Shown one piece after another: positions 48,161 through 53,980 of a stretch of 61,112 nucleotides of DNA (position 1 is the stretch's first letter; each line of letters begins with the position of its first letter). The translations under genes and the position numbers were made by a program. The notes under the pieces were generated by a model. The model searched no databases. It was given only the letters and a program-made list of their open reading frames with translations, and had not been told where the DNA came from. The DNA is taken from positions 1 to 61,112 of the IMG/VR virus record IMGVR_UViG_3300032116_000195, one strand, 5' to 3'. Source of the stretch: a virus. Lineage: Duplodnaviria; Caudoviricetes.

Positions 48161-48173
48161 GATTAAATTTTAG

Positions 48174-48244
48174 CACCCATCCGAGGATTCGAACCTCGAC
48201 CTCTGCCTTTGGACGGCATTATTCTACCATTAAAATAGACGGGG
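48174..48244 (-). tRNA. Degenerate tRNA-Trp(CCA)-like gene
   Basis: Cloverleaf with T arm cgagg-TTCGAAT-cctcg, D loop AATGGTA and anticodon loop gtCCAaa; mismatches at 1:72, 10:25 and 27:43. Confidence 0.65.
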
Positions 48245-48921: not shown

Positions 48922-49100
48922 TGTTCAACTGGTTTCATTCCATGATATTCATCTCCAGTCAACCTCTTTTTTTCTCCGTCAAAGAAGGTGACATCGTAAA
49001 CGATGTTCTGACCACCCAAGTAGACTTGCTCTACCTTGGCGACCTTGCCTCTTCCGCTGTAAAATCTAACGTCAAATGTTTTGGTAATTGTCTCTCTCAT
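48918..49100 (-). CDS. Small early protein (SH3-like beta pattern)
   Basis: AC-rich leader before the ATG. Confidence 0.6.
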   Translation of the reverse strand: MRETITKTFDVRFYSGRGKVAKVEQVYLGGQNIVYDVTFFDGEKKRLTGDEYHGMKPVEQ

Positions 49101-49120
49101 TGGTGTGTGGTTTAGTGAGG

Positions 49121-49164
49121 AACTGGCGGTGATATCGCTTCACCTTCGGCCTTTCCTGCCAGTT
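49121..49164 (-). ncRNA. Anticodon-less tRNA-like element A
   Basis: aactggc/gccagtt 7-bp stem plus ggtga-agcgata-tcacc 5-bp arm. Confidence 0.7.
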
Positions 49165-49173
49165 CGGGGGTAA

Positions 49174-49305
49174 TTAATCTTCCCAAGCAGTGATGATCTT
49201 CTCCCCAGTAGAATCATCCAAGTAAATAGTCCAATCTCCAATCGTTACATAGAGGGACTCATCGGATCGAATATCGATCGTGATGCCATTAATAATCATT
49301 TCCAT
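49174..49305 (-). CDS. Small early protein (43 aa, not in ORF track)
   Basis: MEMIINGITIDIRSDESLYVTIGDWTIYLDDSTGEKIITAWED* with aaaaccacacact leader. Confidence 0.6.
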   Translation of the reverse strand: MEMIINGITIDIRSDESLYVTIGDWTIYLDDSTGEKIITAWED

Positions 49306-49567
49306 AGTGTGTGGTTTTATAGTAATTAACTGAATATTGAAATGAACCTTTAGTGCCTTTCTTTACTTCATGTCGGGATGGAACATAGTTTCCATAGTAG
49401 TCTTTATGCCCCATTGCAGAAAGCATACAAGCCCCACATTCGATCAGATGCATAGCCTCCCTTCCGATTGACCCTTCCATCCTCCATGCCATACCCGTGT
49501 CGATTAGGTGTTGGATGTAGTCATAGCCTCGCTCAATTTGGAGTCTTTTGATTGTTTGGTAGTTCAT
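49289..49567 (-). CDS. Hypothetical early protein
   Basis: 92 aa with AC-rich leader. Confidence 0.7.
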   Translation of the reverse strand: MNYQTIKRLQIERGYDYIQHLIDTGMAWRMEGSIGREAMHLIECGACMLSAMGHKDYYGNYVPSRHEVKKGTKGSFQYSVNYYKTTHYGNDY

Positions 49568-49586
49568 GTGTGTGTGTTTTGATGAG

Positions 49587-49634
49587 GACTGCCTCGCCTA
49601 ACGAGGGCGAATGATAGCGGTCTATCGGGCAGTT
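49587..49634 (-). ncRNA. Anticodon-less tRNA-like element B
   Basis: actgcc/ggcagt stem, gatag-accg-ctatc hairpin and tcgcc-ctcgtta-ggcga arm. Confidence 0.7.
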
Positions 49635-49642
49635 CGGGGGTA

Positions 49643-49825
49643 TTATCTACTAACAAATACTCCGTTTTTTGTATACTCTACCTTGTATCCATTTTTTATC
49701 AGTTCAGCATAGTATTCAGACTTCGGCATGATATAACCATCTGCCCTTCGGAATCCGCATCTGCATTTTCCGGTGGATGTCTTCAACTTAATTGTGGACT
49801 TTTTAGTTAGTGCGTTGTCGTTCAT
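49643..49825 (-). CDS. Small early protein
   Basis: 60-aa ORF with an ATGA overlap. Confidence 0.55.
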   Translation of the reverse strand: MNDNALTKKSTIKLKTSTGKCRCGFRRADGYIMPKSEYYAELIKNGYKVEYTKNGVFVSR

Positions 49826-49905
49826 TTTTTCAGTTTTTTGTGGTAAAGTGATGCAAAGATGATGTTCGCAAGTGCGAAGGCGGTGATGGTTGAGATGATT
49901 ACCAT
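49822..49905 (-). CDS. 27-aa membrane peptide
   Basis: MVIISTITAFALANIIFASLYHKKLKK*; coupled on both sides. Confidence 0.5.
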   Translation of the reverse strand: MVIISTITAFALANIIFASLYHKKLKK

Positions 49906-50036
49906 GTTATTCCGAGGATTTGTTTTCCAATGGTGGTTACTTGGCGGTCCATGCCCATCATGTAGAGGGTAATGAATCCGATCTGAATTGTCAAGGCAAG
50001 GGTGACGATGGCGGTCATTGCTTTTAGAACTTTCAT
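49899..50036 (-). CDS. 45-aa membrane peptide (not in ORF track)
   Basis: MKVLKAMTAIVTLALTIQIGFITLYMMGMDRQVTTIGKQILGITW* with AC-rich leader. Confidence 0.6.
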   Translation of the reverse strand: MKVLKAMTAIVTLALTIQIGFITLYMMGMDRQVTTIGKQILGITW

Positions 50037-50056
50037 GTGTGTGTGTTTTGATGAGG

Positions 50057-50098
50057 AACTGAGGGCAGTATCGCTCTGCCTTATCCACTCTCTCAGTT
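50057..50098 (-). ncRNA. Anticodon-less tRNA-like element C
   Basis: aactgag/ctcagtt stem, D-loop-like gagtgg and ggcag-agcgata-ctgcc arm. Confidence 0.7.
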
Positions 50099-50105
50099 CG
50101 GGGGA

Positions 50106-50345
50106 TTACTTTGAAATTTCAGCATCCATTAAGTAATCGTGAATGCAGTCCAATTCAGACTTGTTTAAATCGTTGTAGTCACTTACAAGGAAGGATTCGT
50201 ACATCTTGATGGCATCTGCCCATAGGTAGTCAAGTTCCCTCTCGTTTCGGTCAGGCAGTGACATTGCCATGCAGAAGACCCCGTAACTATTCATGTAGCT
50301 CCTGTGCATTGCTTGGTCAAAATCGGTTGTGTCAATTTTATACAT
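50106..50345 (-). CDS. Hypothetical early protein
   Basis: ATG at 50345 after the AC-rich leader. Confidence 0.65.
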   Translation of the reverse strand: MYKIDTTDFDQAMHRSYMNSYGVFCMAMSLPDRNERELDYLWADAIKMYESFLVSDYNDLNKSELDCIHDYLMDAEISK

Positions 50346-50365
50346 TTTTGTGTGGTTTTGATGAG

Positions 50366-50411
50366 GACTGCCTCCTGTCACGAACAGGATGCCATCAGAA
50401 TGGGGGCAGTT
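50366..50411 (-). ncRNA. Anticodon-less tRNA-like element D
   Basis: actgcc/ggcagt stem, ccat-tctg-atgg hairpin and tcctg-ttcgtga-cagga arm. Confidence 0.7.
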
Positions 50412-50418
50412 CGGGGGA

Positions 50419-50499
50419 TTACATATTCCCTGCTAAGACAAGACCAAAGGCAAGGACGACCAATACGATCATCAAGTAAGTAAAGTCTCTATTTTTCAT
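50419..50499 (-). CDS. 26-aa membrane peptide (not in ORF track)
   Basis: MKNRDFTYLMIVLVVLAFGLVLAGNM*; ATGA overlap, stop abuts element D. Confidence 0.55.
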   Translation of the reverse strand: MKNRDFTYLMIVLVVLAFGLVLAGNM

Positions 50500-50666
50500 G
50501 CATAAAGGTTTGGGTTATTCAATTGCATCCTCAGTAGAAAGGTGCGGTACATTTGTCTCGCCTCCCTTATTGAAATGCCATACAATTCGACATATTGGCG
50601 GACTATCTTGTCATCGATAGTGAAGGTCTTTCTGACCTTGTTTTTTCTGCTAAATACGGGTCTCAT
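50496..50666 (-). CDS. Small basic protein (56 aa, not in ORF track)
   Basis: MRPVFSRKNKVRKTFTIDDKIVRQYVELYGISIREARQMYRTF... with AC-rich leader. Confidence 0.6.
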   Translation of the reverse strand: MRPVFSRKNKVRKTFTIDDKIVRQYVELYGISIREARQMYRTFLLRMQLNNPNLYA

Positions 50667-50677
50667 TGGTGTGTGGT

Positions 50678-50860
50678 TTAAATAGTTACAAATTCGGGTT
50701 CTAACTTGCTTGGCGATGGGTAGATGTAGAAGAATAAGTTCGGGAACTTCTCCTTCAATGCATTAGCCTTTTGTTCGGCATCTTTTCGTTTGTCATAAAA
50801 TCCATGAGTTCCGATTTCATTGTAGTTACCTTCTTCAATTACGTGGTAGTATACTTTCAT
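50678..50860 (-). CDS. Small early protein
   Basis: 60 aa with AC-rich leader. Confidence 0.6.
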   Translation of the reverse strand: MKVYYHVIEEGNYNEIGTHGFYDKRKDAEQKANALKEKFPNLFFYIYPSPSKLEPEFVTI

Positions 50861-50876
50861 CGTGTGTGGTTTTGAT

Positions 50877-50921
50877 TGGGAACTGAGCAGGGAATCGAAC
50901 CCTGCTTACAACCATTCAGTT
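50877..50921 (-). ncRNA. Anticodon-less tRNA-like element E (canonical T loop, encoded CCA)
   Basis: aactga/tcagtt stem, atggtt D-loop-like segment, gcaggg-TTCGATT-ccctgc, then C-CCA. Confidence 0.75.
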
Positions 50922-50928
50922 CGGGGAC

Positions 50929-51108
50929 TTATTCGTTAGGATATATGGTATAATCCTCACCATCTACATTCATCTGCTCCAACTCTTGGTCATACGCAGT
51001 TCCATTGTCTACCATTTCGAGGTACTTTGCTTCTGCCTCTGCCTGAGAACTGGCTTCAATAGTCAACCATGTGGTGTACGTTCTTTGTTGTTTGATTTGA
51101 TACTTCAT
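50929..51108 (-). CDS. Small acidic early protein (59 aa, not in ORF track)
   Basis: MKYQIKQQRTYTTWLTIEASSQAEAEAKYLEMVDNGTAYDQELEQMNVDGEDYTIYPNE*. Confidence 0.65.
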   Translation of the reverse strand: MKYQIKQQRTYTTWLTIEASSQAEAEAKYLEMVDNGTAYDQELEQMNVDGEDYTIYPNE

Positions 51109-51121
51109 TGTGTGTGTGTTT

Positions 51122-51174
51122 GGTTAAGACCACCTTGCGGTGGTTTCGGCTACTCTAAGCCTCATCAGTTAACC
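51122..51174 (-). ncRNA. Hammerhead ribozyme, type I
   Basis: ggttaa CTGATGA ggct-tagagt-agcc GAAA ccacc-gcaa-ggtgg TC ttaacc: complete core and three perfect stems. Confidence 0.93.
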
Positions 51175-51630
51175 TTGCAGTTCGGGAATTTCAATCGTCT
51201 GCTCTTCCAACTTCGATAGTGGTAGCTTATTTGAGAATACCCAACCGAATTCATTGGACATTTTCGCCATCCATTCACGACCTTGTGGGTTATTGGCTAC
51301 ATACCCATCAGCGAAAGGCTTCTCAGTACGTATTGAATTGTCGTAGTATTGGACACGAACAAAAGGGGAGTTGACCATGCTTCCGGAATAGGATACTTCG
51401 TTGATCAACTTTATGCCTTCCGGTATCGTATAAATGGCGAAAAGTTCGGGGTAGTCATTGATGGAATTGAACCTCTCAAGGAATACCACATCATTGTACT
51501 TTTTGTAGCGGTTGACTACCCTTACCCATTCGCTTTGATTGTAGTCACTTTTGGAGTGGTTCAGTACTTCATCGAACGTTAACTCTCTAACTTCCATGAT
51601 AGGAAGCGGTGTGGTGAATGTCAGTTTCAT
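51169..51630 (-). CDS. Hypothetical early protein flanked by two hammerheads
   Basis: 153 aa; the stop codon lies in stem I of the downstream ribozyme. Confidence 0.7.
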   Translation of the reverse strand: MKLTFTTPLPIMEVRELTFDEVLNHSKSDYNQSEWVRVVNRYKKYNDVVFLERFNSINDYPELFAIYTIPEGIKLINEVSYSGSMVNSPFVRVQYYDNSIRTEKPFADGYVANNPQGREWMAKMSNEFGWVFSNKLPLSKLEEQTIEIPELQG

Positions 51631-51643
51631 GTGTGTGTGATTT

Positions 51644-51700
51644 AGTGTGTTTCGCCATTCTGTGGCTCATCAGTTCGGGAGAAATACCCGAAGACACACT
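51644..51700 (-). ncRNA. Hammerhead ribozyme, type III
   Basis: agtgtg TC ttcggg-tatttct-cccgaa CTGATGA gcca-cagaa-tggc GAAA cacact. Confidence 0.93.
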
Positions 51701-51940
51701 CTCATCAGTCACCCTCACGGGTACGCTTTCTGCCGAAGCAGAGACATTGGATACCCAAACGATAAATCAGATTGGGTAGCGGCTGATGGGTTACTTTCGA
51801 TGTGACGTGCCTTGTCGTGGTGGATGTCAGTGCATTGATGGGATTGATTACCCATTGTTGACTCTCCGATTGTGGGTTGCCATGGGGCAGAGCCGATGTC
51901 CCGATTTCGGTTAACACATTCAGTCGATTTCACTCCAATA
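51701..51940 (-). ncRNA. Structured leader RNA of the early operon
   Basis: tctgc-TTCG-gcaga, accc-GTGA-gggt and tacccaa/ttgggta hairpins closed by catcag/ctgatg. Confidence 0.55.
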
Positions 51941-52291
51941 AACAAAGAACTTTTTTGTACTTAGAAATTTTGCACTTACACTCTACACCTCATCCGATAT
52001 TTTCCCTTGCGGTGGTTTCGTTATGTGGTTGCATTTAGACTATTGCACTCAGGCAGTCGCACCATTACTTCAGAGCGGTTGTAAGCGGAAACTTCAAAGA
52101 ACTAAAGTAGTGACTAACTCTCTACTTTCGAGAGTAAAATTGCAAGGAAAATATTTATCCGCAAAATGTGGACTAAGTATTGACAACGAAAAAGAGAATT
52201 TAAAATCTCTACAAATCAGTCATATCAACAACGAAAACGTTTTCGTAAGTTTTAGTAAAAAAGTTTAAAAGTACTTTCTAAAAACTCTCGA

Positions 52292-52495
52292 TTATAGCGT
52301 GTTGAGGTGATTATTCAACCTTGATTGGTCTATAAAAAACATATGGCAGAGTGCGACAACTTCGGGGTCTTCTTCGTTCTTATACTGCATCAGAAGACGG
52401 AGGAATTCGACCTCACTTTTGCCCTCAATTTCTATTATTAATTGCTTCAAGTCTTTAAGTACTTCTGCTTTGGCGGATTCAAAATACGTGTTCAT
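52292..52495 (-). CDS. Hypothetical protein
   Basis: ATG at 52495 after aaccac leader. Confidence 0.5.
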   Translation of the reverse strand: MNTYFESAKAEVLKDLKQLIIEIEGKSEVEFLRLLMQYKNEEDPEVVALCHMFFIDQSRLNNHLNTL

Positions 52496-52585
52496 GTGGT
52501 TAGATTTGGGAGGCGGAAAATACATTACAAAATACTCCCATGATTACGTGATTTCCCGTAATGAAAGTGGGGCAGTTCGGGGGCA

Positions 52586-52909
52586 TCAAAGCCTCTTATT
52601 AAGTAGATACCTACGTATAGCAGACAAGTACTCCCGACCAAGAGGAGCAAGAGAAAGTTTATAGTCTTGTATATGTATAAGAGAGAGGGAAGAGAGAGTA
52701 TTAACCGAATTGTATAACGCCCCAACACTAATTGGATGTCCCATTCGTTTGGCATGGCGTTGAACTCCAGACTGACGGATGCCTTCGGGAAGGTATGCAA
52801 TGGAGTATAGGACAAAGATATCACTGGCCGAAAGTTCTGGAAGGTCGAACCTTCGAGATACTTTGATAATGGCAGAGGGCATGAGAAAAATATACTTATT
52901 CAACTTCAT
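52586..52909 (-). CDS. MarR-like winged-helix protein
   Basis: LSASDIFVLYSI...ALYNSVNTLSSLSLI...LSLAPLGREYL. Confidence 0.55.
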   Translation of the reverse strand: MKLNKYIFLMPSAIIKVSRRFDLPELSASDIFVLYSIAYLPEGIRQSGVQRHAKRMGHPISVGALYNSVNTLSSLSLIHIQDYKLSLAPLGREYLSAIRRYLLNKRL

Positions 52910-53411
52910 GGGTCGGAAAGGATGAAAAGAAGGGGCGGCAATTGTAACATGACGTTCACCGCCACCTTGTGTGGTTTTTCAGTACTATCGTTGATGTTTT
53001 TTATCGTTTGTCTGCATCCATTTTCCCCTTCCGATTTGCATCCCTTCGGACTCATTGCATCCACTCGCATGATGCACATGATTAAGGCACAACCGATTAG
53101 CATTTTGGATACACTAATGGTGCATTAATTTTGTGTGCCGAAAACCGATTTCGGGATGCCCAAATTGACCCCCACCCGATGCGCAAATCCGACTCCGCAA
53201 CCGCACGCCACACCCACCATTTATATGCATTACCCCCACAATTCATCCACACAAATCCTATTTCTCCAACCAGATCCTACCAACCACAGAACCCACGACT
53301 TTTTGAATGGGCCTGTGAGGTCATTACAGGCGATTCTAGGCGGTCTCTATGTTTAATCAGCAGAGATATTGCGGCAATAACAACCGCCATATTCTTGGTT
53401 TATTAAACCTG

Positions 53412-53503
53412 TAGAACAGGCAGGATTCGAACCTGCAAAGGCAGCTACAACCCTATTCACTTTGTAAGGGGAGCACATCCTACGTACCATACGCCACTGT
53501 TCT
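53412..53503 (-). ncRNA. tRNA-like RNA with expanded, irregular anticodon region
   Basis: agaacag/ctgttct acceptor, gcgt-atggt-acgt D arm and gcagg-TTCGAAT-cctgc T arm; no assignable anticodon. Confidence 0.65.
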
Positions 53504-53573
53504 ATGTCCCAAGCTTCACTTGATGCGTCCAGCAAGGAGCGGCTTGGTAATCCACCATAACTTATGCCTTTGG

Positions 53574-53980
53574 CTATTCGTTTGCGTGGAAACAAGACCA
53601 CTGAAGTGTGCTTCGCAATCCTATTCGATACTATCTCAAGGCAATTGGAGAGGCATCGTGGTACTGTTGATGCGAAGATAAACGGCTAACTCTCGATATT
53701 ATTGTTTTATGAACATCTGAGGATAACTCGTAAACGATAATAGAGAGTGAAGTAATTTCGCCATTCTGGTTCTACCTGCTAGGGTAGGGGTCCAGTCAAA
53801 ACCCCAAGCTAGGTTTATCCGAGGACGGAATGTTTAAGCTGATAGCAGGAGCGACAGAGATCAGACTCTCTGACCGAAAGGTAGCTATGACCCGGGACGT
53901 GGGTTCTCAATGGTGATAGTTTTAACGAATAGGGTTACTTCCTTTTAAGCGAAGCTTTACCCGAACATGAATAACTCATG
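53574..53980 (+). ncRNA. Candidate large structured non-coding RNA
   Basis: Nested long-range helices and many hairpins in an ORF-free 400-nt region. Confidence 0.5.

Follow-up and report, generated by a model that had tools for sequence, protein, structure and literature searches.

The DNA analysed here, called the window below, is the whole of an IMG/VR virus record of 61,112 bases, which is classed as linear and estimated to be 54% complete. Its phage genes include those for a large terminase, a primase/helicase and a RecE-like exonuclease, as well as an integrase-like gene, and the DNA runs that contain the window are labelled freshwater or fungus metagenomes. Shine-Dalgarno motifs are scarce (6 of the 70 ORFs of this genome), and a Bacteroidota-type host for the phage is suggested by this scarcity alone. 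The genes discussed below belong to a minus-strand run that extends from about 53.6 kb down to 34 kb, and a blastn comparison of positions 49000-53600 with deposited phage genomes gave no match. At the gathering thresholds, an Rfam search of the window returned two tRNAs and nothing else; both of the hammerhead ribozymes that are the subject of this analysis were missed. A tRNA-Gly(CCC) at 53411-53503 (minus strand), near the head of the minus-strand operon, is 93 nt long, of which 36 nt are inserted when compared with the tRNA model, and scores 31.8 bits, and an ordinary tRNA-Trp(CCA) lies at 48173-48244 on the same strand.

The gene between the two hammerheads (51169-51630, minus strand) encodes a protein of 153 aa with no assigned family. 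No Pfam, PHROG or PDB profile matches it; 150 homologues are listed at E <= 1e-3, and Y30, N31 and W35 are invariant across 46 homologues. Its AlphaFold model is a confident alpha/beta fold (pLDDT 95.8) with no PDB match at a Foldseek E <= 1e-3 among solved structures (best VIA Z 4.9), and the sole structural match is an uncharacterised phage protein in BFVD (E 2.3e-8). The next gene downstream (50929-51108, minus strand) encodes 59 aa and has a weak match to phrog_10718 only.

Two hammerheads around one gene

The ribozyme that follows the 153-aa gene is a predicted type I hammerhead. The initial annotation had placed such a motif at 51122-51174 (minus strand), and the core, the MFE fold and the covariation of its family bear this out. 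Stem I is open and has 6 bp (GGUUAA/UUAACC, the 5' strand being 51174-51169), stem II has 4 bp (GGCU/AGCC) and a UAGAGU loop, and stem III (ACCACC/GGUGGU) is closed by the loop GCAA. The core reads CUGAUGA and then GAA, with an A15.1-U16.1 pair and C17 at the cut, and is canonical at every constrained position (C3 U4 G5 A6 N7 G8 A9, G12 A13 A14, and an H17 that is not G). C17 is base 47 of the 53 and falls at 51128, so that cleavage is predicted between 51128 and 51127. Both the MFE and the centroid fold are exactly the hammerhead, with stems II and III looped and stem I open, at -17.9 kcal/mol (z -2.84), an energy that 2 of 200 shuffles matched. The TAA stop of the 153-aa gene (51171-51169) makes up the 3' half of the stem I 5' strand. 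The initial annotation had placed this stop within stem I, and its coordinates for the cut and the leader are likewise correct: the 3' product begins at 51127 and runs through an A/C-rich leader of 19 nt without a Shine-Dalgarno motif (51109-51127, minus strand), with a predicted 5'-OH, to the ATG of the 59-aa gene at 51108-51106.

It should be pointed out that the standard model for this class does not recognise the motif. RF00163 gave no match at E <= 5 in the window or at E <= 10 in a 141-nt stretch (gathering score 34 bits), and the type I copy of one relative reaches 23.5 bits against the same threshold of 34. The missing match is best ascribed to the limit of that model's seed, as the core, the three helices and their compensatory changes in relatives are all present. 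The best Rfam signal, in the 141-nt search, came from RAGATH-1 (RF03152), with 24.2 bits against a gathering score of 56.3, over model positions 26-77 of 77. Like the type I copy, RAGATH-1 has a short stem I that ends in UUA/UAA by the core and a long stem III hairpin; unlike RAGATH-1, the type I copy lacks the 5' extension and has a regular 4-bp stem II, where the model line has one pair. A covariance model named R1, built from a 70-member alignment of the sub-family described below, scores the window's copy at 67.6 bits (E 1.1e-13).

The second ribozyme, a predicted type III hammerhead, precedes the 153-aa gene at 51644-51700 (minus strand). Its RF00008 score of 44.4 bits (E 1.9e-6 for a search of the whole window) falls short of the gathering score, 48.5. 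The core is present, the MFE and centroid folds are those of a hammerhead with an open stem III (z -2.85), and among 8 copies in the clade compensatory changes are seen in 10 of the 16 predicted pairs. The predicted cut lies between 51693 and 51692, which leaves the ribozyme body on the downstream RNA, and a CA-rich leader of 13 nt (51631-51643, minus strand) separates the end of the motif from the ATG at 51630. Both copies in the window share the core, the three-way junction and the topologies of Hammerhead_1 and Hammerhead_3 (RF00163 and RF00008), with no RF00163 match for the type I and an RF00008 score under the threshold for the type III.

The two motifs are 526 nt apart around a single ORF, and the initial annotation was right that the gene is bracketed by two ribozymes: with the type III at 51700-51644, the predicted excised RNA is 51692-51128, or 565 nt, close to the length that had been proposed. 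Hammerhead cleavage products carry 5'-OH and 2',3'-cyclic phosphate ends, and the ends expected for the excised piece follow from this chemistry. RNA contigs from three metatranscriptome libraries cover 51147-51338, 51173-51421, 51445-51595 and 51701-51874; both cut sites lie outside these contigs, which are assembled at a depth of about 3 with DNA carry-over possible, and the gaps at the cut sites carry no inference.

Upstream of the type III motif there are about 590 nt without a convincing ORF (51701-52291, minus strand), which probably form a 5' leader. This stretch holds several oddities. An orphan CUGAUGAG at 51708-51701 (minus strand) directly precedes the type III ribozyme on its 5' side, and a small hairpin with a GUGA loop of the GNRA kind lies 5' of CUGAUGAG, at about 51709-51727. 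A 16-nt exact copy of the GAAA/stem III/loop segment of the type I ribozyme is found at 52020-52005 (minus strand), in the ORF-free part, and was probably left behind by a lost ribozyme or by recombination. Neither the orphan nor the 16-nt copy could be extended into a further complete hammerhead, R1 and RF00008 gave no extra match in the window, and between 51600 and 52320 no other Rfam family rose above noise at E <= 10.

Given that both motifs score under the Rfam gathering thresholds, one has to ask whether they are chance look-alikes without function. The bare core pattern is of little help here, with 3 matches in the window against 1.57 expected, which is not significant. A full descriptor, requiring the core, G12-A14, the A15.1-U16.1 pair, H17 and three stems, was searched on both strands of the window and matched exactly twice, at the type I and the type III sites. 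In 300 dinucleotide-preserving shuffles of the whole window, the same descriptor found 5 matches in total, with 4 shuffles having at least one. The two observed matches, moreover, are both on the coding strand and flank one gene. These counts and the strong covariation of the family contradict a chance origin, which we regard as next to negligible.

A type I sub-family and its reading frames

The type I motif was followed into other viral contigs with the pattern TTAACTGATGAG-N-CGAAAC-N-GTCTTAA, in which the inner stem I letters, the core and GUC are fixed and the other stem letters are free. This pattern matches at least 119 viral contig stretches, and the pattern loci together with the loci of primase relatives gave 171 distinct type I sequences among the matches listed. 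A degenerate pattern drawn tightly on the window's own copy had 0 matches. Because the stem letters are free in the family pattern, the number of paired stems is a fair test of the structure. Among the matches listed, 107 of the 120 unique pattern matches pair at all 3 outer free positions of stems II and III, compared with 0.7 on average and at most 4 in 200 shuffles, and all four Watson-Crick pair types are found at each free stem position.

An alignment of 70 members, taken from the matches listed, points the same way. Here 100% of the cells pair against 76% when shuffled, double changes are seen in 9 of the 15 pairs, covariation scores 0.608 against 0.118, and sliding the partner strand out of register brings the pairing to 41% or less. 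The core varies at N7 and H17 alone among these 70, and N7 and H17 are the freely varying core positions of hammerheads in general. Outside the core, there is an A directly 5' of stem I in 149 of 154 members and directly 3' of it in 140 of 154, and U19 and A21 of loop II are kept in at least 90% of the 70 aligned (both among the matches listed). The flanking A's and the loop II U and A are suggestive of a tertiary contact between stem I and loop II; loop II itself has 6 nt in the window and 5 in most members of the sub-family. Such a contact is required for fast hammerhead cleavage at physiological Mg2+, and as stem I here is open and just 6 bp long, fast cleavage would depend on this putative contact.

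When the stem I letters were dropped from the pattern, 97 different phage hammerheads of type I were recovered, and their stems I are very diverse; one of them has GAUUAA, and stem I ends in TAA or TAG next to the core in 19 of these 97. Type I hammerheads of phages are thus many, and the sub-family of the window's copy, with its conserved sequence, is one part of them. As the sub-family lies below the Rfam thresholds, annotation pipelines miss its type I copies.

The position of these ribozymes between reading frames is as regular as their structure. Counting the next ATG where it opens a frame of 40 codons or more, the start codon follows the cut in a tight cluster at 18-29 nt in most of the 171 members among the matches listed. 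Upstream ORFs, with the same minimum of 40 codons, are present in 138 of 154 members; relative to the core, the stop falls within -15 to +11 in 129 of these 138, among the matches listed. It is the TAA of stem I in 45 of the 138, the UGA of the core in 23 and a codon in loop II in 8, lies 0-9 nt before stem I in 53, and is farther away in 9, again among the matches listed. The stop in stem I is the commonest single arrangement in the sub-family, yet it is not special. We found no description of such stop and start codon placement around phage hammerheads in the openly readable literature. The ribozymes also tend to come in arrays: among the matches listed, 52 of the 117 locus-strands carry two or more and no locus has them on both strands, the median spacing is 501 nt, and a type III copy leads 11 of the 14 arrays that include one.

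A stop codon inside stem I invites the idea that a ribosome terminating at this UAA keeps the type I ribozyme unfolded, so that translation of the upstream gene tunes cleavage and the release of the downstream mRNA. The footprint of a terminating ribosome reaches about 12-15 nt 3' of the stop, and with stops placed as in the window and as counted above, stem I and the core would lie under such a ribosome in almost every member. The use of the three frames is also skewed towards the stem I TAA (53, 31 and 14 of 160 among the matches listed). Interference of a terminating ribosome with ribozyme folding, as the initial annotation had proposed, is physically reasonable, and, as the stops abut or enter the ribozyme in 129 of the 138, even very likely on physical grounds. 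A regulatory device is a different matter. The TAA is retained even in members whose upstream ORF stops elsewhere, with 62 of the 138 ORFs ending before stem I among the matches listed, and the stops become rarer deeper inside the ribozyme, which suggests that intrusion is tolerated rather than sought. The third-frame codon of loop II is a stop in just 84 of 155 members, and each of the four letters is common in the middle of this codon (among the matches listed), which leaves a selected stop in all three frames unsupported. The head ribozymes, that is, the type III and the twister discussed below, have no ORF running into them. Taken together, the TAA kept regardless of use, the thinning of stops with depth and the count of loop stops fit compaction better than a control device; what is seen looks like tight packing on a conserved stem that was already there, and gating by the ribosome appears rather unlikely.

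A hypervariable island and its relatives

Relatives of the phage were found through the primase/helicase, with 23 records at 60-75% identity. Type III copies at E < 1e-4 are present in 9 of these 23, none of them over the Rfam cut-off, and R1 finds type I copies in 9 of the 24 clade records, always in the same region. The descriptor, too, picks out type I in four relatives, with a stem I of GGUUAA or GAUUAA and its matching partner, and with stems II and III that are quite different. A conserved gene of 107 aa (52586-52909, minus strand), which has tblastn matches in 20 loci of relatives, serves as a synteny anchor upstream and, in the relatives, precedes the head ribozyme by about 520-620 nt. 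The loci fetched from the relatives contain no homologue of the genes at 51169-51630, 50929-51108 and 50678-50860, and they do contain homologues of the flanking genes; the ribozymes thus bound a hypervariable island of small early genes. A related-locus search of viral contigs with the 153-aa protein also found no relative. Homologues of the bracketed gene do occur in 3 unrelated contigs, where each of them begins just after a type I hammerhead. Two non-coding stretches in the window are shared with single relatives, 52093-52266 with G010 (76% identity over 178 nt) and 52016-52069 with G013 (82% over 55 nt); in both relatives they are likewise upstream of the head ribozyme, and they may represent a promoter, a leader or a small RNA.

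The head position itself is occupied by different ribozymes in different relatives. All 3 records that have type I copies and lack a type III carry a twister-P1 candidate there: G010 (L334:1501-1565, minus strand), G014 (L092:1549-1610, plus strand) and G015 (L333). These candidates, called with the Rfam model, score 47.5-47.9 bits (E about 1e-11 per record) against a gathering score of 67.2, with none in 14 control genomes, and they lie about 20 nt before the ATG of the first cassette. In G010, the CA-rich leader that follows the twister is nearly identical to the leader that follows the type III in the window, and no twister was found in the window itself. The presence of either of two unrelated self-cleaving folds at a single syntenic site indicates that what is kept is cleavage, and, as far as the comparison of these loci goes, self-cleavage appears to be what selection acts on. 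The arrangement is not universal in the clade, however. No type I, type III or twister was found in the nearly complete relatives G019 and G022, so the device must be dispensable. A decayed type I copy is seen in G018 (L329:1501-1549, minus strand), where C3 has become U with no compensating change at G8, the 3' half is degenerate and R1 gives 23 bits.

A mosaic island of this kind raises the question of whether the ribozymes persist as recombination points, or as riders of mobile cassettes, with little benefit for expression. Similarity of the flanks does often end at the ribozyme. Pairs of members were taken from different loci where one 80-nt flank reached 80% identity or more; the other flank was concordant in 4 pairs and discordant in 10, compared with 8 and 1 at intragenic control sites (Fisher p 0.009, from pairs that are few and non-independent). 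Contigs of a freshwater DNA run, X6, follow the window on one side and part from it at 51143, 51148 and 51175, within the type I ribozyme or at its border, and the 16-nt copy of the stem III region at 52020-52005 and the decayed copy in G018 can be read in the same sense. One of the X6 contigs continues into the 5' half of a different copy from the same ribozyme family, a case of strain-level mosaicism. The broken flank similarity and the X6 variants would suit an exchange of cassettes at the ribozymes. Against this, the junctions of phage mosaics fall at gene boundaries anyway, and the controls were intragenic rather than ribozyme-free boundaries. The strict conservation of the core, the compensatory stems and the replacement of one ribozyme class by another all point to selection on cleavage, and we consider it unlikely that the ribozymes are kept for recombination or as passengers.

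Proposed processing and insulation, and the predicted excised RNA

The reading that we favour, and hold to be probable, is that both motifs are self-cleaving and serve to process the boundaries between cistrons and to insulate recombining cassettes in an early polycistronic transcript. It builds on the motif and its fold, the conservation and covariation in the family, the positional rules and the replacement of one class by another at the same site. Cleavage in vivo, and with it any effect on the stability and translation of the mRNAs, is inferred. The type III cut would remove a leader of about 600 nt from the transcript, and since this ribozyme cuts near its own 5' end, its body would stay on the downstream mRNA, that of gene 51630-51169, as a folded 5' terminus with a 5'-OH. 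The cut of P1 twisters is likewise close to their 5' end. In the type I ribozyme the cut is close to the 3' end of the motif, so that its body would remain on the upstream mRNA and form a folded 3' terminus that ends in a 2',3'-cyclic phosphate. Gene 51630-51169 would then have an mRNA that keeps its stop codon and has a ribozyme fold at each end, and the type I cut would free the next gene with a short, unstructured 5'-OH leader of 19 nt that lacks a Shine-Dalgarno motif. In this manner the stability and translation of a cassette gene would be insulated from whichever neighbours recombination brings. The effect of a 5'-OH on decay differs between bacteria; in Bacillus, the glmS cleavage product is degraded by RNase J1.

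The initial annotation had also suggested that the piece of about 565 nt could circularise, a proposal that finds no support in the present analysis. The end chemistry, 5'-OH and 2',3'-cyclic phosphate, would suit an RtcB-type ligase or ligation by the hammerhead itself. The two ribozymes of the window, however, are of different types. The 5' end of the excised RNA, UUCGGG..., is part of the stem I hairpin of the type III and cannot pair with GGUUAA, and in the predicted fold of the 565-nt RNA each end sits in its own hairpin with no end-to-end helix. As the excised ends are not complementary, there is no support for a circle of gene 51169-51630; nor was RtcB (PF01139) found in the record, at an estimated completeness of 54%. 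The stop of the ORF is retained, so that a circle would have no endless frame. For phage hammerheads in clusters, the 2011 study by Perreault et al. reports that circular or spliced products were sought and none was detected (PMC3088659). We consider ligation of the 565-nt piece into a circle highly improbable.

The situation could be different where successive type I copies share the fixed stem I, as do three in L090. Stem I may be so unusually fixed in order that the 5' end produced by one ribozyme can pair with the stem I 5' strand of the next. The excised ends might there rebuild a nicked hammerhead, and be able to religate or meet a host RtcB, to give circular, exonuclease-proof cassette mRNAs. 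This is a speculative and very unlikely extension in our estimate; were it true, the type III/type I pair of the window would still yield a linear mRNA, capped by a ribozyme at each end. The comparison with viroids and retrozymes is instructive in this respect. There, too, a segment between two hammerheads is freed with ligatable ends, according to the accessible text of a paper on these circles (PMC7229834). The hammerheads of viroids and retrozymes are identical repeats, so the ends can rebuild one ribozyme; those of the window differ in type, and the ends of its excised piece were found not to pair in this way.

Cistron processing, the reading preferred here, has clear precedents. Hammerheads that flank genes in phages and prophages have been in print since 2011, and, from what can be read of that report, tandem prophage hammerheads cleave in vitro and were proposed to process transcripts into single-gene mRNAs (PMC3088659). 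The clusters it describes, in its accessible part, consist of several hammerheads close together on the same strand that flank single small genes of varying identity, and the cases tested were tandem ones in Clostridium scindens, Azorhizobium caulinodans and Agrobacterium tumefaciens (PMC3088659). The window's pair, likewise, is on the same strand, close together and around one gene. It differs in combining a type III with a type I, in coming from an uncultured freshwater phage, and in that its type I belongs to the conserved GGUUAA/UUAACC sub-family with its flanking A's. This sub-family may already be present in the alignments of Dataset S1 of Perreault 2011. The same source, so far as its readable part goes, describes HHphage of the haloviruses HF1 and HF2, a hammerhead 13 nt upstream of the start of the first ORF in an early polycistronic transcript, with a mapped 5' end near the cut site (Perreault 2011). 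That case differs from ours, again going by the accessible part, in being an archaeal virus with a core-variant hammerhead and no intercistronic array.

Two further comparisons concern the head ribozyme and the leaders. Twister ribozymes share gene contexts with bacterial hammerheads, as stated in the accessible part of PMC6765202, and in G010, G014 and G015 the twister-P1 candidates hold the position of the window's type III. RiboJ, an engineered insulator, raises the expression of the genes it insulates and, by self-cleavage in the 5' UTR, removes the upstream context and leaves a defined 5'-OH leader, as the accessible text on it describes (PMC6206723). It is used singly, and the likeness to the phage ribozymes is one of function only.

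What hammerheads encoded in bacterial and phage genomes do biologically is described as a question still open in PMC6765202. The regularities at this locus and its relatives bear on this question: the short and fixed distance from the cut to the next start, the packing of stops into the 5' half of the ribozyme, the body of the head ribozyme going to the downstream mRNA and that of the intercistronic ribozyme to the upstream mRNA, and the swap of hammerhead and twister at one site. Together, they argue that cleavage is selected, and that these ribozymes act as cistron insulators in the recombining accessory-gene islands of phages.
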